From assembly GCA_021296325.1 (NCBI GenBank), contig JAGWAR010000003.1, positions 5,796 through 69,795 on the forward strand: a stretch of DNA of 64,000 nucleotides, given 5' to 3'. Position numbers and translations under genes: made by a program. This DNA is from Alphaproteobacteria bacterium (GTDB taxonomy: Bacteria; Pseudomonadota; Alphaproteobacteria; GCA-2746255). The notes beneath the pieces were generated by a model, which saw nothing but the letters and a program-made list of their open reading frames with translations, ran no database searches and had not been told where the DNA came from. Shown here in pieces: positions 2,100 through 11,929 of this stretch. Position 1 is the first letter of the stretch; each line of letters opens with the position of its first letter.

Positions 2100-2312
2100 G
2101 CGCCAAGGACGGCGAGCGCCGGTTTGGGGTGCCTTTAGCTCTTTCTTAAGGCGCATACGGTAGTAACTGCAGACGGAGAAGTGGGCCATTTGAAGGGGAC
2201 ACTCGACCGTGCATACGCCGATGAAAAGCGAGAAGGCATTCCTCTGCACGCCCGCGGCCAAGAGGCCGTCGGCGAGAAGGATGGGCTGCGCCCATCCTTC
2301 GGGGGGTGCCCG

Positions 2313-3632
2313 GTGACTCCCTACGAAATCCTGCAACTTCTTCGCAAGCATGAGAAATGGCTTGCCGGCAAGGCCGATGGCGAGCGCGCGGATCTGAGCC
2401 AGGCCGATCTGTCGGGCCTGGACCTTTCCAAGGCGGATCTGCGGAAGGCGCGCATGAATGGCGCCGTTCTCAAAAACTGCAACCTGACCGGCGCCAATCT
2501 GGAAGGCGCCAGCCTCTACGCGGCGAATCTGTCCGACTGCATCCTGAGAAAGGCGAACCTCACGAAGGCCGATTTACATGGCGTCGATCTCAAGAAAGCC
2601 GACTTGACCGAGGCCAATCTGGAAGGCGCCGACCTGCGGGAGGGCCGGATGTTCGACATGAGCTAGGGGGACGGCTGGAAAGCCGTCGGCAGCAACCTCG
2701 GGCAATCCGTCCTGAACGGCGCTATTTTGAAAAACGTCAACCTCACCCGCGCTAACATGAAAAAGGTGTCCGCCCTGGATGCCGACATGTCGGGCGCGAC
2801 GCTGGTGGGCGTCAAACTTCAGGAATCGGATCTGAAAGGCGCCAATCTAAGCAATTCAAACCTTGCAGGCGCCAATCTCGGGAATACGGACCTGTCCAAC
2901 TGCAATTTCGACGCGGCCAATCTCACCCGTGCCAACGTGGCAGGCGCAAACCTTGCCAACGCCAATCTGGAAACGGCGAACCTGATGGACGTGGAGATGG
3001 CGCTTTCCCATGTGAAGAACGCCAAGCTTCCGCGCACGCCCCCGAAGGGCAAGCGGCCGATCCAGGTTGTGCTGGAGGACCATTTGCGCTGGATCGAAAC
3101 CCGGGGCAAGGAAGGCGAACGGGCCAATTGCGACGGCTACGACCTTACCAATCTGGACCTTTCCGGCATCGACCTCAGCGGCGCCAGCATGAAAGGGGCC
3201 GACCTGTCTCGCGCCGATCTTCACGGCTGCACGTTCGAGCTTTCCGACCTGTCCCGCGCCACGCTTCAGAACACGAATCTGGAAGGCGTGAACATGGCCG
3301 GGACAAACCTGACGGAGGCCGACCTGACCGGCGCCAATTTTCATGGGGCGCGGCTTGTCTCGGTCGAGCTTCGCGACCAGGCGGGGCGCTCCACGGGACG
3401 AATGTGGCCCACCAATTTGAGCCGGGCGGCCCTGCTGGGCGCCTGCCTCGCGGAATCGGACCTGACGGGGGCCAACCTGCGCGGGGCCGATCTGCGCGGG
3501 GCCGATCTGCGCGGGGCCAACATGGCCGGGGCGGCCGTGGAAGGCGCCAATCTGGAGGGCGTGCAGTTCAAGGGCGTCATCGCCTTCGACGGCGTGATCG
3601 AGGACGTCGCAAAGCAAAAGCGGGCGGGTTAA
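2313..3632 (+). pseudogene. Pentapeptide-repeat protein paralogue 1 (PRP1), interrupted by an in-frame TAG at 2664-2666; otherwise a 439-codon frame
   Basis: Track ORFs 2181..2666 and 2727..3632 are in the same frame, separated only by one amber codon (..LREGRMFDMS*GDGWKAVGSNLGQS..). The start is placed at GTG 2313 by homology: (M)TPYEILQLLRKHEKWLAGK aligns with MSPKDIIRLLRKHERWLQGK (PRP2) and MSPHEIIRLLRKHEQWLQGK (PRP3). The body is A(D/N)LxG-type pentapeptide repeats. Confidence 0.7.
3477..3521 (+). repeat. Three tandem 15-bp units (ctgcgcggggccgat x2, ctgcgcggggccaac) inside PRP1 encoding (L)RGAD repeats
   Basis: Read directly: ..ctgcgcggggccgatctgcgcggggccgatctgcgcggggccaac.. translated GANLRGADLRGADLRGANMAG. 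Confidence 0.8.
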
Positions 3633-3643
3633 CCCTGATAGAC

Positions 3644-3660
3644 CCCGTCGGACGGCGCGT
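3644..3660 (+). terminator. Putative rho-independent terminator after PRP1
   Basis: CGGACG-gcg-CGTCCG hairpin followed by atttccataaaattttt (T-rich). Confidence 0.45.
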
Positions 3661-3920
3661 CCGATTTCCATAAAATTTTTCGAAAATTTGATTCCCTCTT
3701 GCCAGGGAACGGCGTCGATTGGCCGTTTCGCTGAACTATTTCGTTAAAGCAAAAAATTTTATCTAAATTCAAAACAAATTCTAACCAAATCCGAATCGAA
3801 AATTATTGAAAGCTTTATTCGATTTAAGGTTTCTTCTCGTTAAGTGAGAAGGAGTGGGCACGAGGCAAACACGGTTTCCTTTCTGTTAAGCGAATTAGGA
3901 AGATCGCTTTTTTCGAAGGT
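3661..3920 (+). promoter_or_regulatory. AT-rich (~40% GC) 260-bp spacer between PRP1 and PRP2: probable regulated promoter or curved-DNA region
   Basis: Strong compositional contrast with the 64% GC flanks. It contains A-tracts (aaagcaaaaaattttatctaaattcaaaacaaattctaacc), direct repeats ttcgaaaat / atcgaaaatt and tctcgttaagtga / tctgttaagcga. The only ORFs are short overlapping ones with no support. Confidence 0.4.
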
Positions 3921-3941
3921 ATGGAACCAAGTAGGTGTGAC

Positions 3942-5205
3942 ATGTCTCCAAAGGACATCATACGGCTGCTGCGAAAGCACGAAAGGTGGCTACAAGGCAA
4001 GGTCGGCGGCGTACAGGCCAACCTTTCGAACATGAACCTAACCGGGTTGGATTTTTCCTATTCCAACCTGAGTCAGGCCGAGCTTAACAGCACCAACCTC
4101 AAGCGCAGCAATTTGAACGGCGCCAACCTTTCGGGTGCGCATCTGCCGGCGGCCGACCTTTCGCTCGCCAATCTGATTCACGCGGACTTCACCGGCGCAC
4201 ACATGCAAGGCGTCAACCTGCACAAGGCCGTTCTCAAGCGCGCCAAGCTTGAGCTTGCGGATTTGCGGGAAGGCCGCGTTGCCGCCTGGAGCGAATCCGG
4301 CGACTGGAAAGCCATGTCCATCGCGGCCGATCTCAGCAACGCCGTCTTCGACGAGGGCGAACTGACCGATGCCAATTTGAGCGGCGCTGATATGCGCGGA
4401 AGTTCAGGCAAGGACGCCAACCTCTCCGGCACCATCCTTACCGGTGCAAAACTGGACAACGCCGATTGGAAAAAGGCGAACCTGACCCAGGCCAACCTTA
4501 CGGACGCAAGGCTTGTGGAAGCGAATTTCGCCGGCAGCAATTTCAACGCGGCGACCCTTGTCCGGGCCGACGTTCACGGAACCGATTTTTCGAACGCCAT
4601 CCTCGATACCGCCAATCTCGAGGATGCGCCGATCGAATTCGCAAAACTGCAAGGCGCAAAGCTTCCGGCGTCATTCAAGAAGCGGGCCAAGCCGCTGCAG
4701 AACGTCCTCAGGGATCATCAGCGCTGGATCGAAACCCGGGGAAGAACCGGCGAACGGGCCATGCTGGACGGCTATGATCTGAGCGGCCAGAACCTGTCCG
4801 GCATCGATATGAGCGGCGCCAGCCTCCGCGGGGCGGACCTTTCCGAGGAGGATCTAAGCACCGGCACCTTCGAATTAACAGACTATTCTTACGAATATGG
4901 AAGGCGCGCGGCTTGCCGGCGCCAATCTTCTGGAGGCCAATTTAAGCGGGGCAAACCTTCACAACGCCCAGCTGATTTCGATCGAGCTTCGGGATTCCAT
5001 CGGCAAGCGTACGGGACGGATGTGGCCGTCCAACCTTACGCGCGCAACGCTGATCAATACCCGGCTGGCAGGCGCCAATCTTACAGAAGCCAACCTGACC
5101 GATGCCAATATGCACGGCGCAGATCTTGACGGCGTGACTTTTGCCGGAGCGGGCATCCGCGTGGCTCCGGCAGAGCCGGAAGGCTACGGAAATTCGGCCT
5201 CGTGA
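3942..5205 (+). pseudogene. Pentapeptide-repeat protein paralogue 2 (PRP2), frameshifted near 4875-4895 by a ~17-nt deletion relative to PRP1 and PRP3
   Basis: N-terminus MSPKDIIRLLRKHERWLQGK from ATG 3942. In-frame translation degenerates into Arg/Gln-rich nonsense after ..FELTDYSYEY. The +1 frame (track ORF 4897..5205) resumes the paralogous sequence NMEGARLAGANL...VELRDSIGKRTGRMWPSNLTRATL. Nucleotide alignment with PRP1 and PRP3 shows 40 nt here where they have 57 nt. Confidence 0.65.
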
Positions 5206-5250
5206 ACACGAAACCCATGAACAACCATCAAGCCTACAATTAGGTGAAAC

Positions 5251-6546
5251 GTGTCCCCTCATGAAATCATACGGTTGCTTCGGAAGCACGAGCAGTGGCT
5301 GCAAGGCAAGCCCGAGGGTGCGCAGGCGGATTTTTCCAAGCTGGATCTTTCCGGCCTGGACCTTTCCAGCGCGAATTTGAGCCGGGCAAACCTGAATGGC
5401 GTGTCCCTGAAAAACTGCAACCTGACCGGCGCCAACCTTGAGAACGCCAATTTGTACGCGGCCGAATTTTCCTATTCGACGCTTGCGCATGCGAATCTCA
5501 AGGGCGCCGACCTGCATGGCGTAAATTTCTACAAGGCCGACCTTAGCGGAGCCAGCCTTGAAAAGGCCGATCTGCGGGAGGGCCGCCTCGCCGTCATGAC
5601 GGGCAAGGGCACCTGGCAGGTCGTCGGCAGCAACCTTGGCCGCTCGATCCTGGACGAGGCCACGCTTCGGGGCGCCAACCTGACGCGTACCGACATGAAG
5701 GCCTGCTCGGCAGTTGGAGCCGATTTTTCCGGGGCGACGATGGTCGGCGCGCGCATGAAAAACGCCAATTGCGAAGGCGCTAACCTGAACCATGCCAACC
5801 TTTCGGGCGCCAATCTTGGAAATGCCAATCTGAAAGGCTGCAATTTCAGTGGCGCCACGCTGGTCCAGACCCACGTGACGGGCGCCGATTTCTCAAACGC
5901 GAATCTTGAAACCGCCAATCTGGTGGACGTGCCGCTGACGCTTGCAAAAGTGACCAAGGCGCGCCTGCCGGCCACGCCGTCGGAGCGGAAAAAGACGATC
6001 GAGGCCATCCTCGAGAGCCACATGAAGTGGGTGAAAAGCCGGGGCAGCATGGGCGAACAGGCCATCCTGGACGGCTATGACCTGAGCTGGCTCAACCTCG
6101 CCGGCGTGGACTTGAGCGGCGCCAGCCTGAAAGGCGCCAATCTTTCGGAAACCGACCTGCATGGCGGGATTTTCGAACTGGCCGATTTTTCCGGGGCTGC
6201 CCTTCAGGGCACGAATCTGGAAGACGCCGTCCTGTCCGGCGCCAGCCTTTCGGAAGCGGACCTGAGCGGCGCCAATTTGCGCCGGGCTCATCTGCATCCG
6301 GTGGAATTGCGGGATCAAAACGGCATCTCGACCGGGCGCACCTGGCCCACCAACCTCTCGCGGGCGGCCCTTCTGGAAGCCAATTTGAGCGGCGCCGACC
6401 TCACATCGGCGAATCTGACCCATGCCGATTTACGCGGCGCGGACCTGCGCGATGCCAGTCTGAAGCAGGCGATCGTCGAAGGCGTGAACATGGAAGAAGC
6501 CTATTTCGGCGAAGATGGAAAGAGGGCCGCCGCCGCGGCGTCCTGA
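5251..6546 (+). CDS. Pentapeptide-repeat protein paralogue 3 (PRP3), 431 aa, apparently intact
   Basis: MSPHEIIRLLRKHEQWLQGKPEGAQADFS.. followed by three blocks of A(D/N)LxG pentapeptide repeats. Non-repeat segments ..IEAILESHMKWVKSRGSMGEQAILDGYDLS.. and ..VELRDQNGISTGRTWPTNLSRAALL.. are shared with PRP1 and PRP2. Confidence 0.8.
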   Translation: MSPHEIIRLLRKHEQWLQGKPEGAQADFSKLDLSGLDLSSANLSRANLNGVSLKNCNLTGANLENANLYAAEFSYSTLAHANLKGADLHGVNFYKADLSGASLEKADLREGRLAVMTGKGTWQVVGSNLGRSILDEATLRGANLTRTDMKACSAVGADFSGATMVGARMKNANCEGANLNHANLSGANLGNANLKGCNFSGATLVQTHVTGADFSNANLETANLVDVPLTLAKVTKARLPATPSERKKTIEAILESHMKWVKSRGSMGEQAILDGYDLSWLNLAGVDLSGASLKGANLSETDLHGGIFELADFSGAALQGTNLEDAVLSGASLSEADLSGANLRRAHLHPVELRDQNGISTGRTWPTNLSRAALLEANLSGADLTSANLTHADLRGADLRDASLKQAIVEGVNMEEAYFGEDGKRAAAAAS

Positions 6547-6596: not shown

Positions 6597-6653
6597 TTGT
6601 ATCCCGGCGAAAAGCCGTTCACGCTTCGTGGATGCCTTTCCGGGAGAGCCTTC

Positions 6654-7400
6654 ATGCGCATAAGCCCCCTGCCCTGGCTTGAGCCGGTGATCGCCCACCG
6701 CGGCGCAAGCGGGGTGGCGCCGGAGAACACCCTGGCCGCGATCCGCCGGGCGGGCGAGCTTGGCGCCCGCTGGGTGGAGGTCGACCTTCGCCGGACCGCG
6801 TCGGGGCCTTTCGTGCTCATGCACGACGCCACCCTCGATCGCACGACGAACGGCACGGGCCTGGTTTCGGAAACGCCTTGCGAGGCGATCGCCGGGTTGG
6901 ACGCCGGCGGCTGGTTCGGGTCGGACTTCGCGGGCGAGCCGGTACCGACACTGAATGCCTTTATGGCGCTTTGCGGCGAGCTTGGGCTGGTAGCCAATAT
7001 CGAGATCAAGGCGGAAGCCGACGCGGACGCGGTTGGTTATGCCGCCGCCAAGGCCCTGCTTGAAGGCTGGCCGGGAACGCTGCCGCCGCCGCTGATCTCA
7101 AGCGATTCGCCCACCCTGTTGCGCGCCGTCGCGAAAATAGCGCCCGATTTTCCCCGTGGCCTCATCGTAACCCAGGTGCCAAGCGAAGCCGTGCTCAACG
7201 AACGCGCCTGGGGATGCGTTTCCGTGCACGCCAGCGATACGTTTCTTACGCGGGCCAAGACCGCGTTGCTGGTCGCCAGTGGCTACGCCGTGCTGGTGTA
7301 CACGGTCAACACGCCGGCGCGCGCCCGAACGCTTTTCGGCTGGGGGGTCGATGCCATCTTCACGGACCACCCGGAGCCGGCGCGCTGGCAGAACGGCTAG
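6654..7400 (+). CDS. Glycerophosphodiester phosphodiesterase (GDPD family)
   Basis: MRISPLPWLEPVIAHRGASGVAPENTLAAIRRAGELGARWVEVDLRRTASGPFVLMHDATLDRTTNG carries the HRG..ENT and E.D motifs of GDPD. RBS GGGAGAG precedes ATG 6654. Confidence 0.8.
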   Translation: MRISPLPWLEPVIAHRGASGVAPENTLAAIRRAGELGARWVEVDLRRTASGPFVLMHDATLDRTTNGTGLVSETPCEAIAGLDAGGWFGSDFAGEPVPTLNAFMALCGELGLVANIEIKAEADADAVGYAAAKALLEGWPGTLPPPLISSDSPTLLRAVAKIAPDFPRGLIVTQVPSEAVLNERAWGCVSVHASDTFLTRAKTALLVASGYAVLVYTVNTPARARTLFGWGVDAIFTDHPEPARWQNG

Positions 7401-7711
7401 CGGCCGGCTTCGAGCAAAAACCCGATGGCAAGCAGCGTCAACAACCGCCGCGTGCGGGCATCGATTTCCTTCTGTGTCCCATCCCCGGACGCCGCACCCG
7501 CATCCGACGTCTCTCGCCGCGCCCGCAAGGGTGGCCGCGTATCGGCGGGTGGCGCCATCGCGGTTAGAGCCGGCGGTTCGACGGCGGCTTCGCGTGCCAG
7601 CGTGAAACGGGGATGCTCCAGGGTTACCAGAGCGACACCGGTAAGCCCCAGCAAGAAGGCGCCGAGCGCATGGATGCCGATCTTCCGACCAGGAAATCGC
7701 ATCGTCATCAT
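7397..7711 (-). CDS. Possible small two-helix membrane protein (104 aa)
   Basis: Two hydrophobic segments (IHALGAFLLGLTGVALVTL; LLTLLAIGFLL). It is convergent with the GDPD gene, overlapping by 4 nt. There is no homology evidence. Confidence 0.3.
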   Translation of the reverse strand: MMTMRFPGRKIGIHALGAFLLGLTGVALVTLEHPRFTLAREAAVEPPALTAMAPPADTRPPLRARRETSDAGAASGDGTQKEIDARTRRLLTLLAIGFLLEAGR

Positions 7712-7884
7712 CTGCCTCCTTTGATTCCCGGAGTGCAGGGTAGCGCGACCGCCCTAAGGAAAAATTAAGTAATACATTGATTTTATTGATTATTATCGTC
7801 TTTTGCAGAAAAGATGCGCGACGTATTTAGCAGGTTTGCCGTGCAAATTCGCGGCGAATGCGCCGAAGCCAGCGTTTCCGCCCA

Positions 7885-9342
7885 TCACGCCCCCTGCCCG
7901 AATGGTCCGAACATGGATTCGGCAGGACCGGCCGTGACCGGCCGGCCGGAAAGGTGGCGGTTGATCCAGGCCGGCAGTTTCGGCGCCGGCATTGGATGGC
8001 CGATGCCATAGCCCTGGGCCAGATCGCAGCCAAGCTCGGTCAGAAAATCCCGGGCGGGCCCGGATTCGATTCCCTCGGCAACGACCGTGACCCCGAGTCG
8101 CTCGGCCAGGTAAATCAGGGACTGCACGATCGCCACGTCGCTCATGTTCGTCGTGATGTTGGCGATGAAGGACGGGTCGATCTTGATTTCGTGGATGGGC
8201 AGTTTTTTCAGATAGGCAAAGGAGGAGAACCCCGTCCCGAAATCGTCAACCGAGATCCGAATTCCCATGGAATGAAAGCGATTTAGAATCTCCAGAATGT
8301 GATCGAGGTTCAGCATTAACGCGCTTTCGGTGATTTCCAGCACGAGAAGTTCGGTCGAGATCTGCCAGTGCTCCAGCAGGCCGATCACCCGTTCGGGCAA
8401 TTCGAGATCGTGCAGGGCGCGCGGAGAAACGTTGATCGCGACCGGCAGGGATAGCCCCTGCCGGCTCCAGACGCCTACCTGTTCAAGCCCCATGCTGATC
8501 GTGGCCTCCGTCAGGGTCTTGATCACGGCGGTGCGTTCCGCGGCGGGAATGAAGTCGCCGGGAGGCACCAGCCCATGCACCGGGTGATGCCAGCGCACCA
8601 GCGCCTCGACACCGACCAGGTGGCCCGTCTTCAGGGAAATTTTCGGCTGGTATTCGAGCTTCAGCTGGTCCCGTTCGAGGGCTTCCCGCAGCTCGCTGGC
8701 ATAGAGGAAACGGCGGTGCATCTGGTCGTCGCGGGCTAGGTTGTACAGGGCATAGCCGCTGTTCAGGCGCTTGGCTTCGTACATCGCCTGATCGGCATGA
8801 CGGAACAGCGTCGAGGAATCGGCGCCATGCTCCGGAAAGAGCGCAATACCGATGCTGATGCCGACGTCGACGAAACTCCCATCCAGCGCGATCGGCACCT
8901 CCACCGTATGGGCGATCTTTTCGGCCAGGGCGAAGGTGCCCTCCAAGGACGCGGTGGTGGGCAGAATGGCCATGAACTCGTCCCCGCCGAGACGGGCAAG
9001 GGTGTCCGATTCACGGCACGTCCCGACCAGCCGCTCGGCCACCTTCTTCAACACCTCGTCGCCCGCATCGTGGCCCAGCGTATCGTTGATTTCCTTGAAC
9101 CGGTCGAGGTCCATCATAAGCACGGCAAGGCGGGTGTTGTTCCGCCGCGAAAGCGCGATGGCGCGGTCGAGGCGGTCATGAAACAACGCCCGGTTGGAAA
9201 GGCCCGTCAGGGGATCGTAAAGGCTTAGCTGTTCCAGCTCTTCCTGGGTGCGGACGAGTTCGTTGGTAAGCTCGGTGACGCTCCGGTAGGTTTCGTCAAG
9301 CTCGGTTTCCAGGGCGGCAATGGTGGCCCTGGCGGCACGCAA
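7885..9342 (-). CDS. GGDEF-EAL protein (diguanylate cyclase/phosphodiesterase) with only a coiled-coil N-terminus and no sensor domain
   Basis: The RLGGDEF motif and EAL domain (..LKLEYQPKISLKTGHLVGVEALVRW..) are present. The track start 9405 overlaps the upstream gene by 58 nt; a TTG at 9342 lies immediately after the upstream stop (9347-9349). Confidence 0.8.
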   Translation of the reverse strand: MRAARATIAALETELDETYRSVTELTNELVRTQEELEQLSLYDPLTGLSNRALFHDRLDRAIALSRRNNTRLAVLMMDLDRFKEINDTLGHDAGDEVLKKVAERLVGTCRESDTLARLGGDEFMAILPTTASLEGTFALAEKIAHTVEVPIALDGSFVDVGISIGIALFPEHGADSSTLFRHADQAMYEAKRLNSGYALYNLARDDQMHRRFLYASELREALERDQLKLEYQPKISLKTGHLVGVEALVRWHHPVHGLVPPGDFIPAAERTAVIKTLTEATISMGLEQVGVWSRQGLSLPVAINVSPRALHDLELPERVIGLLEHWQISTELLVLEITESALMLNLDHILEILNRFHSMGIRISVDDFGTGFSSFAYLKKLPIHEIKIDPSFIANITTNMSDVAIVQSLIYLAERLGVTVVAEGIESGPARDFLTELGCDLAQGYGIGHPMPAPKLPAWINRHLSGRPVTAGPAESMFGPFGQGA

Positions 9343-9346
9343 CGCG

Positions 9347-9769
9347 TCATTTCCATTTGACGATTTCAACCCGGGTCCCCTTGCCAATGGTGGAAGTGAT
9401 CGCAAAATCGTCCATCAGACGCTTGACGCCGGGCAGACCCTGTCCGGGATTGCCGCCTGCCGGTACGCCGTCCTCGACGGCGCGGCGGGTATCCGAAATG
9501 CCGGGCCCCTGATCGATAAAGACGCAGCGTATGCCGATGGCGCTGCCGTTTTCGGCCAGATGCATCTCCATCCGCCCACCACCACCATGCAGCAAGGTGT
9601 TGCGCGCCAGCTCGCTGACCGAGGTTGCGATACGGGTCTTGTCGAGGGCCGAGAAACGCAGCTCTTCGGCGTATTGCCGGGCCGCCCGCCGGGTGCGGAT
9701 GATGTCTTCTTCGGAAGCGATGTCATACGCGTTCATGATCGCTTGCTCTTGGCAGTGCGCGATTTTCAT
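9347..9769 (-). CDS. RsbW/SpoIIAB-like anti-sigma regulatory factor (GHKL Ser/Thr kinase), 140 aa
   Basis: ..ATSVSELARNTLLHGGGGRMEMHL...IRCVFIDQGPGI.. shows N-box/G-box-like HATPase_c motifs. Size is typical of partner-switch kinases. Confidence 0.65.
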   Translation of the reverse strand: MKIAHCQEQAIMNAYDIASEEDIIRTRRAARQYAEELRFSALDKTRIATSVSELARNTLLHGGGGRMEMHLAENGSAIGIRCVFIDQGPGISDTRRAVEDGVPAGGNPGQGLPGVKRLMDDFAITSTIGKGTRVEIVKWK

Positions 9770-9983
9770 CCGACATTTTTTCGTTGCGTTGCGTTGCCGC
9801 TAAACTCTCACGGGCAGTCTTAAGAAACGATAAAATGCGCGGCGTGCGCACAGCGCGACGTTACACACAACGGTATGTGAATCATGTCGCGCGCGTGCAC
9901 GGGATCGCGTGCATAAGTGTGAAGAAGAAAAATCCCGGACGAAACCATCCAGGGCCACGACCGGAACGATCGATTGCGGGAAG

Positions 9984-10059
9984 TGGCGACCCCAACGGGA
10001 TTCGAACCCGTGTTGCCACCTTGAAAGAGTGGAGTCCTAGGCCTCTAGACGATGGGGTC
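9984..10059 (-). tRNA. tRNA-Glu (anticodon UUC)
   Basis: Minus strand GACCCCATCGTCTAGAGGCCTAGGACTCCACTCTTTCAAGGTGGCAACACGGGTTCGAATCCCGTTGGGGTCGCCA. Cloverleaf with 7-bp acceptor, TTCGAAT T-loop, anticodon loop CUUUCAA, encoded CCA. Confidence 0.9.
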
Positions 10060-10135
10060 GAGCCAAAGGCGGGCCACCGTGTCTAAACCGGGAAGCCCTT
10101 AAAATCAAGCCTCTCCGGGCTTTCCGGCTGCCCCG

Positions 10136-11929
10136 TCAGGCGTCGGGCCGGGCCAGGGCCGCGTCCTCGATGAAGAGCTGGACGTCGTCCCTTCCCTGCC
10201 AGCGATCGGCCCGGAGATGGCCGGCCAGATGGAGCGACGTGCCGCCCTTGTCGAGCAGGGCGCGGCCGAGTTCCGTCTCGGCGCATCGAAAGGCGATCCC
10301 CTTCATCCGCCCGCCCCCTTCCGCGTCCGTGATCATGCAACGGACGTGATCTTCGCCGACGATCTCGGAAAAGGCGACGCGGGCATTGGCGAAGGCGAAG
10401 CGGGGCTCGGCATTGCCGGGGCCGAAGGGGCTCAGGCGTTCGAGCAGGCGCACGAATTCCACCGTCGCTGCCGCCGGCGTCAACGCGCCGTCAAAGCCGA
10501 GCGAGGGTACGAAGCCGGCCTCTTCCAGGGCGGCGCCGATCCGCGCATCGAGAAAGGCCCGCAAGCCCTCGATACCGTCCGCCTCCACCGTAAAGCCGGC
10601 CGCCATCGCATGGCCGCCGCCGGTGCGGGCAAGTCCCGCCTGGCGGGCCGCCAGCACGGCGCTGCCCAGATCGACGCCGGGCACGGACCGGCCCGAGCCG
10701 GTCGCCATGTTGCCGTTGAGGGCGGCGACGAAGGCTGGCCGGTTGTAGCGTTCGCGAAGCCGACTGGCGACGATGCCGACGACGCCCGGATGCCAACCCT
10801 GGCCACAGGCAAAGGCGATGGCGCGGTCTTCGCCGGCGCCGTCGATTTGCTGGATCGCCTTATCAAGGACGGCCGCCTCGATCTCTTTGCGCTCGGCGTT
10901 CAGGGCGTCGAGATGGGCGGCGAGTTCCCTTGCTTCAAGCGCATCCTCCGTCGCCAGCAATTTCGCACCAATACCCGCCTCGCCGACCCGGCCGCCGGCG
11001 TTCACCCGCGGCCCCAGCAGAAAGCCCAGATGGTAGGCGCCGGGCCGCGTCTCGAGACGGGCCACGTCCATCAGGGCGGCGATGCCGGGATTGCCGCGCT
11101 GGGCCACGAGTTTAAGTCCCTGGGCCACGAAGGCGCGGTTGAGCCCCGTCAATTGCGCCACGTCGCAGACCGTGCCCAATGCCACGAGATCGAGCCAGGC
11201 AAGCAGGTCCGGCTCGGGACGCGTTTCGTACCAGCCCGCCTGGCGGAGCGCGCGGTTCATCGCGATGACCAGAAGATAGGTGACGCCGACGGCCGCCAGC
11301 ATGCGGTGCGGGCTTTCCTCGTCGAGGCGATTCGGGTTGATGACGGCGTGGGCAATGGGAAGTTTTGGTTCGCCGATATGGTGATCGACGACGATGACGT
11401 CGAGGCCGGCCTCCGCCGCCGCCGCGAGTGGCGAAAAGGCGGTCGCCCCGCAATCGACGGTGATGACGACCGAGACGCCCTCGCCTTTCAGGCGCAGCAG
11501 CGCCGCAGCGTTCGGCCCATAGCCTTCCTTCAGGCGGTCCGGAATGTAGACGCGAAGCGGGACGCCTGCCGCCCGGAAGAAGCGTTCGAGCAGCGCCGCG
11601 GACGTGGCCCCATCGACGTCGTAATCGCCGAAGACGGCAACCCGCTCGCCCTCGCGGATGGCCCGCACGAGTCGGGCCGTGGCCCGATCCATGTCCTTCA
11701 GATGGGAAGGATTGGGGAGCAGGCGTTTCAGGGTCGGCTCGAAGAAACTTTCCGCCTCGTCGGGGTGGACGCCGCGGGCGGCCAGCACCCGGCCCATGAT
11801 TTCCGGCAGGTTCAGGCGCTGGGCGAGAGTCATGCCAAGCCGTGCATCGGCCAGCCGCGCCCGCCAGCGTTTCCCCAGAAGGGAACGTTCCACGTCCAGA
11901 AAACTGTCGCCCGAAGGGGGCTTCACCAT
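10136..11929 (-). CDS. recJ: Single-stranded-DNA-specific exonuclease RecJ
   Basis: 597 aa; DHH/DHHA1 motifs (VFGDYDVDGATSAALL, ..DHH..). Confidence 0.85.
   Translation of the reverse strand: MVKPPSGDSFLDVERSLLGKRWRARLADARLGMTLAQRLNLPEIMGRVLAARGVHPDEAESFFEPTLKRLLPNPSHLKDMDRATARLVRAIREGERVAVFGDYDVDGATSAALLERFFRAAGVPLRVYIPDRLKEGYGPNAAALLRLKGEGVSVVITVDCGATAFSPLAAAAEAGLDVIVVDHHIGEPKLPIAHAVINPNRLDEESPHRMLAAVGVTYLLVIAMNRALRQAGWYETRPEPDLLAWLDLVALGTVCDVAQLTGLNRAFVAQGLKLVAQRGNPGIAALMDVARLETRPGAYHLGFLLGPRVNAGGRVGEAGIGAKLLATEDALEARELAAHLDALNAERKEIEAAVLDKAIQQIDGAGEDRAIAFACGQGWHPGVVGIVASRLRERYNRPAFVAALNGNMATGSGRSVPGVDLGSAVLAARQAGLARTGGGHAMAAGFTVEADGIEGLRAFLDARIGAALEEAGFVPSLGFDGALTPAAATVEFVRLLERLSPFGPGNAEPRFAFANARVAFSEIVGEDHVRCMITDAEGGGRMKGIAFRCAETELGRALLDKGGTSLHLAGHLRADRWQGRDDVQLFIEDAALARPDA

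Follow-up and report, generated by a model that had tools for sequence, protein, structure and literature searches.

An RsbT-type kinase gene and a GGDEF-EAL gene as the apparent core of a naturally truncated stressosome operon in an alphaproteobacterium

Why should the gene for a small switch kinase stand immediately before the gene for a predicted cyclic di-GMP (c-di-GMP) enzyme, with no STAS partner in sight? The question is raised by 64,000 nucleotides (nt) of DNA from Alphaproteobacteria bacterium (GenBank assembly GCA_021296325.1, contig JAGWAR010000003.1, positions 5,796 to 69,795; hereafter the window), in which a minus-strand open reading frame (ORF) of 140 amino acids (9347-9769) precedes a minus-strand ORF of 506 amino acids (7885-9405). 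The initial annotation, made from the sequence alone, read the first as an RsbW-like anti-sigma kinase and the second as a GGDEF-EAL protein under its control, and remarked that no STAS partner was in sight. Comparison with related genomes points instead to in-place deletion of rsbR-rsbS and of rsbX from an ancestral five-gene operon, rsbR(PAS-STAS)-rsbS-rsbT-rsbX-GGDEF/EAL, and direct control of the c-di-GMP enzyme by the kinase is the best-supported reading of what is left. Taken whole, the reading that the two genes are the core left over from a stressosome-to-c-di-GMP operon in which RsbT would act on a helix of the output protein is one we hold at even strength for and against. The pair and its junction are as follows.

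9347..9736, minus strand: rsbT, encoding a 129-amino-acid single-domain GHKL serine/threonine switch kinase; stop codon TGA at 9349-9347
9343..9346, minus strand: 4-nt spacer CGCG, the apparent scar of the rsbX deletion and presumed site of translational coupling
7885..9342, minus strand: GGDEF-EAL gene, 485 amino acids, TTG start, the predicted output enzyme of the module

The kinase is orthologous to the stressosome switch kinase RsbT and, to judge from its sequence and gene context, is not RsbW-like in function. Its product consists of a single HATPase_c_2 domain (Pfam, 1.3e-9) of about 130 amino acids, in which the N-box (SELARN), G1 box (DQGPGI) and G2 box (GQGLPG) are intact and lie within invariant columns of the RsbT family alignment; the window kinase retains 26 of the 26 invariant columns, ATP-binding boxes included. 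It is 77% identical to the RsbT of the related locus L087 and 69% identical to that of L007, each the third gene of an rsbR-rsbS-rsbT series within a full module at the syntenic locus, and its homologues carry the JGI name "serine/threonine-protein kinase RsbT". The RsbW-like label stood as far as the fold is concerned, which is of the SpoIIAB/RsbW GHKL type (AlphaFold2 (AF2) pLDDT 92; Foldseek TM 0.78 to SpoIIAB), but it failed for the family, given the names of the homologues and the STAS genes upstream of them. The NCBIfam spIIAB profile reached 36 bits against a cut-off of 135, and within 10 kb there is neither the RsbV/SpoIIAA (STAS) gene nor the sigma gene that would go with an anti-sigma kinase. 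A metagenome scan with the window kinase returned four distant relatives only (43-46% identity) and no further members of its clade.

The ancestral arrangement is visible in the relatives. Domains were mapped in 80 genome loci fetched with the kinase profile, two of which are cut by a contig end upstream, and in 78 of the 78 with upstream DNA present two STAS genes (RsbR and RsbS) lie directly upstream of the kinase. Nearly every one of the 80 has a HATPase_c_2+PP2C gene (RsbX-type) directly downstream and then a signalling protein, while a few have a PP2C-only gene or the contig end there; an orphan pair like that of the window was found in none of the 80. The close clade comprises four lineages, namely the window, L001-L003, L087/L088 and L007/L089. 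L087 has all five genes, RsbR(RsbRD_N-PAS-STAS)-RsbS-RsbT-RsbX-GGDEF/EAL (485 amino acids), after which come the small ORF, the GDPD gene and the pentapeptide genes also found in the window. L007 carries a full module between both of the window's flanks at 80-90% identity (hom, glpX, recJ and tRNA-Glu upstream; GDPD and pentapeptide genes downstream), and L001 carries an orphan pair as in the window. Kinase and GGDEF-EAL genes are adjacent or operon-linked in L001-L003, L004, L007, L087, L095 and L096, that is, across lineages only 43% identical in the GGDEF-EAL protein, and on this conserved gene order the pairing is no chance adjacency.

Some of the related modules are disrupted. In L005 (9405-10741) transposase genes stand in place of the GGDEF-EAL gene, an insertion sequence (IS) insertion. 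L089 (5577-10577) has a split rsbX and a GGDEF-EAL gene broken up by methyltransferase and IS1595 genes; coverage of that contig is only 1.9x, so some frameshifts there may be sequencing errors. In the RsbT of L007 (10001-10384) a G of the G1 box is replaced by E, and the HGGGG run is one Gly short.

Upstream of the window's rsbT, three features record what was lost.

9818..9837, minus strand: 20-nt element CATTTTATCGTTTCTTAAGA, conserved upstream of the operon; presumed promoter/operator
9737..9817, minus strand: remnant leader, about 60 nt like the rsbR leader of L087 followed by about 22 nt like the rsbS-rsbT spacer of L087
9737..9769, minus strand: in-frame extension of 11 codons from ATG 9769, which makes up the 140-amino-acid ORF and is absent from homologues

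The 20-nt element is identical in the window, L001-L003 and L087 and differs at a single position in L007 and L089. Each locus has one copy, which always precedes the first gene of the operon, rsbR in L087, L007 and L089 and rsbT in the window and L001. Within the window it is unique even at 3 mismatches, and shuffles of the window gave 0 matches at 3 mismatches. The element holds TTTA-N7-TTAA, one mismatch from TTAA-N7-TTAA, the consensus of the alphaproteobacterial CtrA box. A terminator-like hairpin at 9852-9836 was dismissed as it is not conserved in relatives. Between the element and rsbT, the window sequence CGAAAAAATGTCGGATGAAAATC matches by eye the L087 leader sequence CGAAAAATAAATGACGAAAACC, and CTGCCAAGAGCAAGCGATCATG, which stands right before the rsbT ATG, likewise resembles the L087 rsbS-rsbT spacer CTGCCAAGCGTGATCGATCATG; by this comparison the remnant leader is the scar of the rsbR-rsbS deletion. 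The same comparison shortens the kinase. Its start is most likely ATG 9736, giving 129 amino acids and not the 140 first assigned, because close homologues are all 128-134 amino acids long and the 22 nt preceding this ATG match the non-coding spacer of L087. The 11-codon extension is probably untranslated; in L087, a full-module locus, the counterpart of its DNA is the operon leader together with the rsbS-rsbT spacer.

The second scar lies at the end of rsbT, where the window reads TGACGCG-TTG and L001 reads TGACGCGGAG-GTG, TGACGCG being common to both. At the same point L087 continues with TGACGG into rsbX (347 codons), whose stop codon overlaps the ATG of the GGDEF-EAL gene. The junction shared by the window and L001 suggests a single ancestral deletion of rsbX. 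Pseudogene remnants of rsbR, rsbS or rsbX in the intergenic DNA were sought and rejected, since tblastn at E<=50 returned none there; the sole match of this search was of the RsbX N-domain to rsbT itself, which is paralogous. Hidden Markov models (HMMs) built from 165 STAS and 87 PP2C ORFs found no match in any frame of the 64 kb, and the only GHKL, GGDEF and EAL matches in the window are the kinase and GGDEF-EAL genes. No rsbR-type, RsbS or RsbX-type PP2C gene is thus present at the locus on the 64-kb scale, in any frame, and no sigma factor was found among the ORFs scanned within +/-10 kb; the initial annotation had reported all three gene types missing within 10 kb, which is borne out and, for STAS and PP2C, extended to the whole window. 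By the evidence of both junctions, rsbR-rsbS and rsbX were removed by clean in-place deletions from the five-gene operon. As the upstream element and the spacer are retained and the deletions are internal, rsbT was not translocated away from rsbRS.

The output enzyme has the following parts.

9223..9339, minus strand: N-terminal helix, residues 2-40 (AF2 model), with continuous a/d heptads, running into the GGDEF domain
9253..9312, minus strand: signature motif LETELDETYRSVTELTNELV, residues 11-30, ELxETYRSVTxLTNEL; proposed RsbT receiver site
8767..9222, minus strand: GGDEF domain, residues 41-192, with I-site RESD five residues before GGDEF
7993..8694, minus strand: EAL domain, residues 217-450, with EALVR, N, EITE, DDFGTG, KID, EGIE and QG

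Both domains give strong Pfam matches (GGDEF 3e-47; EAL 2e-70). For a cyclase, the predicted protein has the GG[DE]EF signature (ARLGGDEF), the DxD...ND metal segment (MMDLDRFKEIND) and the RxxD I-site (RESD); for a phosphodiesterase, it has EALVR, AINVS, EITE, DDFGTGFSS, KID, AEGIE and AQGY. Its best PDB matches are the GGDEF-EAL tandems of MucR and MorA, to which every motif aligned without loss, in agreement with the initial description of the motifs as intact, and the protein is probably bifunctional, both diguanylate cyclase and phosphodiesterase. Its orthologues in L001, L087 (76.5%) and L007 share 76-81% identity with it. With the kinase stop at TGA 9349-9347 and an in-frame TTG at 9342-9340, the gap between the genes is 4 nt (CGCG), because the TGA ends at 9347 and the TTG begins at 9342; the gap had been given as 5 nt, whereas the choice of this TTG over the longer ORF is upheld by the orthologues. 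In a codon-by-codon alignment the TTG falls on the ATG of the orthologue in L087, the N-terminus that it opens also aligns with those in L001, L007, L095 and L096, and all of the orthologue N-termini start 6-9 residues ahead of a shared ALETEL, so that TTG 9342 is supported by alignment as the true start.

As first described, the protein has no ligand-binding domain ahead of its catalytic part, only the N-terminal helix of residues 2-40. It gave no Pfam match to RsbU_N at E<=0.01 and hence lacks an RsbU_N-type receiver. Its GGDEF part matches the SiaD profile (2e-39) at 135 bits, below the cut-off of 290, and the SiaC-like partner and PP2C protein SiaA of a SiaABCD-type system are wanting, there being no STAS or PP2C gene in the window.

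The helix was at first described simply as a coiled coil. Heptads are indeed present, but by its conservation the segment is a specific motif common to stressosome output proteins. Conservation was measured in a set found through RsbT and not through the helix (window, L087, L004, L095 and L096), which avoids search bias. In this set residues 11-30 are the most conserved 20-residue stretch of the protein. Their mean pairwise identity is 77.8%, whereas the whole protein reaches 43.8%, its GGDEF domain 47.7% and its EAL domain 40.9%. The invariant helix residues include solvent-facing heptad positions (E12, E14, E17, Y19, R20, S21, T23, T26 and N27), a pattern that speaks for an interface with a partner and not just for dimerisation.

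The motif is also specific to the module. The pattern [ED]L.[EDQ]T[NY]R[GS]V..L...L has 57 matches among 11,373 ORF segments from 87 loci, all of them in the output protein after rsbX, and in 12 further loci the motif was again confined to outputs of rsbRSTX modules; the L094 cluster adds another kinase with the motif, encoded a few genes beyond the first. The output of most modules begins with an RsbT-like HATPase_c_2 domain, followed directly by the motif variant ELEDTNRGVVALYAELD and then by HisKA-HATPase_c-REC. An alphaproteobacterial sub-family carries the motif as ELEETYRSVTxLTNEL at the extreme N-terminus, where it heads GGDEF-EAL proteins or plain HisKA-HATPase kinases (L094 and L097). 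When 1.84 billion representative proteins were searched exhaustively with the first 43 residues of the window's GGDEF-EAL protein, eight real matches were obtained, with the motif N-terminal on GGDEF-EAL, GGDEF-EAL-REC or histidine kinase proteins, and both of the contexts open to checking (2/2) are rsbRSTX outputs; the top match, P0247, was dismissed as a spurious repeat protein. A profile of the helix alignment found six short fragments only in a database of 5.8 billion proteins. No Pfam family covers the motif, and no paper with its sequence strings was found in the searchable literature.

In L008-L086 the gene after rsbX (e.g. L010 11374-13530) most often encodes a hybrid histidine kinase that itself opens with an HATPase_c_2 domain resembling RsbT (E about 1e-40 to the RsbT HMM). 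RsbX also has an RsbT-like domain, so three genes in a row start with domains paralogous to RsbT, and these may serve for docking to the stressosome.

Both genes of the remnant remain under purifying selection, as estimated from their sequences. Between the window and L001, the two truncated lineages, the ratio of nonsynonymous to synonymous divergence (dN/dS) is 0.18 for rsbT, 0.135 for the GGDEF-EAL gene and 0.17 for the neighbouring GDPD gene, at a dS of about 0.9-1.0 for all three. Relative to the divergence of the GGDEF-EAL protein, that of RsbT is no higher in truncated than in full-module lineages. Together with the retention of the invariant columns, these values argue against a decaying relic.

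What, then, would such a pair do? Two in-place deletions took the sensor and scaffold genes (rsbR and rsbS) and the feedback phosphatase gene (rsbX), left rsbT and the output gene behind the ancestral upstream element, and re-joined these two ORFs 4 nt apart. According to the mechanism that we propose, RsbT, free of sequestration by adjacent RsbR/RsbS and of resetting by RsbX, would be permanently available. It would bind the dimeric N-terminal helix ELxETYRSVTxLTNEL of the GGDEF-EAL protein and stabilise or distort the coiled coil, thereby setting the balance of c-di-GMP synthesis and hydrolysis. Control would then lie in the amount of the pair produced, by way of the upstream element that was kept and of translational coupling, with the 4-nt junction standing in for the ancestral ATGA overlap with rsbX, and the ATP- or kinase-dependent responsiveness of RsbT itself could add a further level, as reported for B. 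subtilis strains deleted for the stressosome (PMC11821858). That RsbT would act directly on the helix, most likely by binding, is suggested by analogy with two systems: RsbT binds RsbU and rigidifies its coiled-coil linker (PMC12143880), and RsbT controls the GGDEF cyclase MtG in Moorella, as summarised in PMC12143880 (Quin 2012, as cited there and in PMC4976288). In addition, an RsbT-dependent stress response persists in B. subtilis without RsbR and RsbS (PMC11821858).

Several observations weigh against this mechanism. Direct binding is not a general rule, since RsbT was not detected to interact with the protein encoded downstream in V. vulnificus (PMC9237108). Invariant Thr/Ser residues in the helix (T18, S21, T23 and T26) admit phosphorylation instead of binding. 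Kinase outputs with a fused RsbT-like domain still have a separate RsbT, which weakens any argument from the fusion. A promoter scan found no convincing sigma-70 promoter near the 20-nt element. In a neighbour-joining tree of concatenated GGDEF-EAL and RsbT sequences, one shared loss for the window and L001 was not separated from two (52% vs 48%; 260 vs 240 of 500 bootstraps), and this split makes the time spent in the truncated state uncertain. Finally, the DNA inspected amounts to 64 kb of the genome.

This last point leads to the first of two rival explanations that we regard as unlikely but that survive best, namely that RsbR, RsbS and an RsbX-type phosphatase are encoded elsewhere, in a paralogous module or as relocated genes, and still sequester and release RsbT. 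B. subtilis has RsbR paralogues away from its operon (PMC11821858), and the window's RsbT keeps all invariant residues of the family, which would include the STAS-binding surface. Set against this are the internal position of the deletions, with the upstream element and spacer retained, and the adjacency of rsbS to rsbT in every one of the 78 loci with upstream DNA. A search with the closest RsbS found RsbS proteins of at least 75% identity only in full modules (L087, L089, L007 and the P0011 contig), a result that leaves room for a paralogous module. Should the stressosome be encoded elsewhere, the finding would reduce to an ordinary split locus of a known pathway.

The second rival, a serious one that we hold at the same low likelihood, has RsbT act as a kinase on the Thr/Ser residues of the helix, T18 being common to both motif variants, and so break or reshape the coiled coil. 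The intact ATP-binding boxes and the invariance of T18, S21, T23 and T26 fit this view, phosphorylation of downstream proteins by RsbT has been proposed for RsbU_N-less modules (PMC9237108) and is stated for Moorella in the account given by PMC4976288, and the kinase activity of RsbT matters in stressosome-free B. subtilis (PMC11821858). Yet with rsbX deleted no dedicated phosphatase is left to reverse the mark, T18 occupies a core heptad position, and the characterised effects of RsbT on RsbU go by binding (PMC12143880).

It is improbable that RsbT is a functionless leftover beside a constitutive GGDEF-EAL protein, serving only as an upstream ORF for translational coupling: although its natural substrates RsbS and RsbR are gone from the locus, and related modules show erosion (the IS in L005, the fragmented L089 and the G1-box G-to-E change in L007), rsbT has no frameshifts or stops, keeps all invariant residues, shows no excess of relative divergence in the truncated lineages, and evolves like neighbouring housekeeping-type genes even at a dS of about 1. 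Least credible by far is an RsbW/SpoIIAB-type anti-sigma kinase with partners elsewhere and an incidental GGDEF-EAL neighbour, since the fold and weak profile matches that point to SpoIIAB are outweighed by the sub-cut-off profile score, by orthologues that sit in rsbRSTX modules and not beside sigma factors, and by the conservation of the GGDEF-EAL adjacency across distant lineages.

Direct action of RsbT on the output helix may be compared with known systems. The initial annotation had called the coupling of partner-switching modules to c-di-GMP turnover under-described, a view that does not hold: biochemical work on Moorella thermoacetica has demonstrated the coupling of an RsbT module to c-di-GMP turnover (Quin 2012, as cited in PMC12143880 and PMC4976288), and stressosome modules with c-di-GMP outputs have been catalogued in Proteobacteria (PMC9237108). 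In view of these precedents, the general coupling of RsbT to c-di-GMP is not new. As far as those accounts describe it, the Moorella MtR-MtS-MtT-MtX-MtG system resembles the present locus in that an RsbT-type kinase is encoded with a c-di-GMP enzyme, following the ancestral logic of R-S-T-X and then GGDEF, and its MtG is regulated by the kinase MtT, as RsbT is here proposed to regulate the GGDEF-EAL protein. MtG, which lacks an EAL domain, receives RsbT through an RsbU_N and a GAF domain, whereas the window protein has a 40-residue helix with its own motif and a GGDEF-EAL tandem, and Moorella has the R, S and X genes that are deleted in the window. In B. subtilis free RsbT acts on the dimeric effector RsbU via an N-terminal region and coiled-coil linker (PMC12143880), to which we propose a likeness here; RsbU, however, is a PP2C phosphatase with a four-helix N-domain that feeds the sigma-B partner switch, and the locus has neither the phosphatase nor that domain, and no sigma cascade (PMC12143880 for RsbU).

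The proteobacterial rsbRSTX modules with c-di-GMP or two-component outputs, such as that of Vibrio vulnificus (PMC9237108), are of the module type of L004, L007, L087, L095 and L096, and share with the sister lineages of the window an rsbX directly after rsbT, followed by an RsbU_N-less signalling protein. The RsbR of the relatives studied here is RsbRD_N-PAS-STAS whereas the Vibrio type has a globin sensor (PMC9237108), and the window is without R, S and X. In stressosome-deleted B. subtilis RsbT signals to its effector without RsbR/RsbS (PMC11821858), and at this locus the window is a natural genotype of that kind; those strains are laboratory deletions with a sigma-B output and with RsbX present, unlike the window. 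SiaABCD of P. aeruginosa (PMC7647112) likewise joins partner-switch-type proteins to a diguanylate cyclase with an N-terminal coiled-coil stalk, but there the partner SiaC, and not the kinase SiaB, binds the cyclase, and the PP2C protein SiaA is essential (PMC7647112), whereas the window has no SiaC-like partner or PP2C protein and its kinase is orthologous to RsbT.

The new parts are accordingly a naturally truncated variant retained under selection and a helix motif as candidate RsbT receiver. How RsbT reaches RsbU_N-less outputs was a question left open in PMC9237108; for such outputs in Gram-negative bacteria the helix motif is a candidate answer and a concrete site to mutate or model, since its 20 residues recur in outputs of both kinds, cyclase/phosphodiesterase and histidine kinase, and surpass the catalytic sites in conservation. 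Whether RsbT signals without a stressosome outside the laboratory, as asked in PMC11821858, becomes testable with the window genotype. A wider proposal, offered tentatively, is that the helix, as ELxET[YN]R[SG]VxxLxxEL, could be a general and hitherto unrecognised RsbT receiver for RsbU_N-less outputs, GGDEF-EAL enzymes and histidine kinases alike, and that RsbT, itself the sensor, could form with its output a self-sufficient unit kept long after loss of the stressosome and of its reset phosphatase.

Genes within 10 kb of the pair comprise recJ, glpX, hom, an aminotransferase gene, and genes for an OmpA-family protein, PhaC, GDPD and pentapeptide-repeat proteins. An Rfam scan of 7300-10300 returned tRNA only, and this tRNA-Glu(UUC) gene (9984-10059, minus strand) lies directly after recJ and 146 nt from the conserved operon element. 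In L001 and L007 the same tRNA follows recJ, but about 2.5-3 kb separate it from the operon, an interval that in L001 holds dodecin, a formate/nitrite-transporter-family gene and small ORFs; absence of this segment from the window suggests a third local deletion. A recent horizontal insertion beside tRNA-Glu was considered and rejected because L001 and L007 show synteny for both flanks and for the tRNA itself.

On the other side, 173 nt downstream of the GGDEF-EAL gene and on the same strand, is a 104-amino-acid ORF (7397-7711, minus strand) with a hydrophobic N-terminal segment and no Pfam family. It is 51-56% identical in L001 and L087, which have a truncated and a full module, and may belong to the operon. 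A GDPD gene (6597-7400, plus strand) adjoins a cluster of four plus-strand pentapeptide-repeat genes at 2181-6546 (2181-2666, 2727-3632, 3921-5129 and 5251-6546), and GDPD with at least two pentapeptide genes is syntenic with the module in L001, L007 and L087. The ORFs at the left end of the window, 118-846, 1163-1732 and 1599-2351 (189-250 amino acids), match no Pfam family, and since the latter two overlap, at least one of them is probably no real gene.

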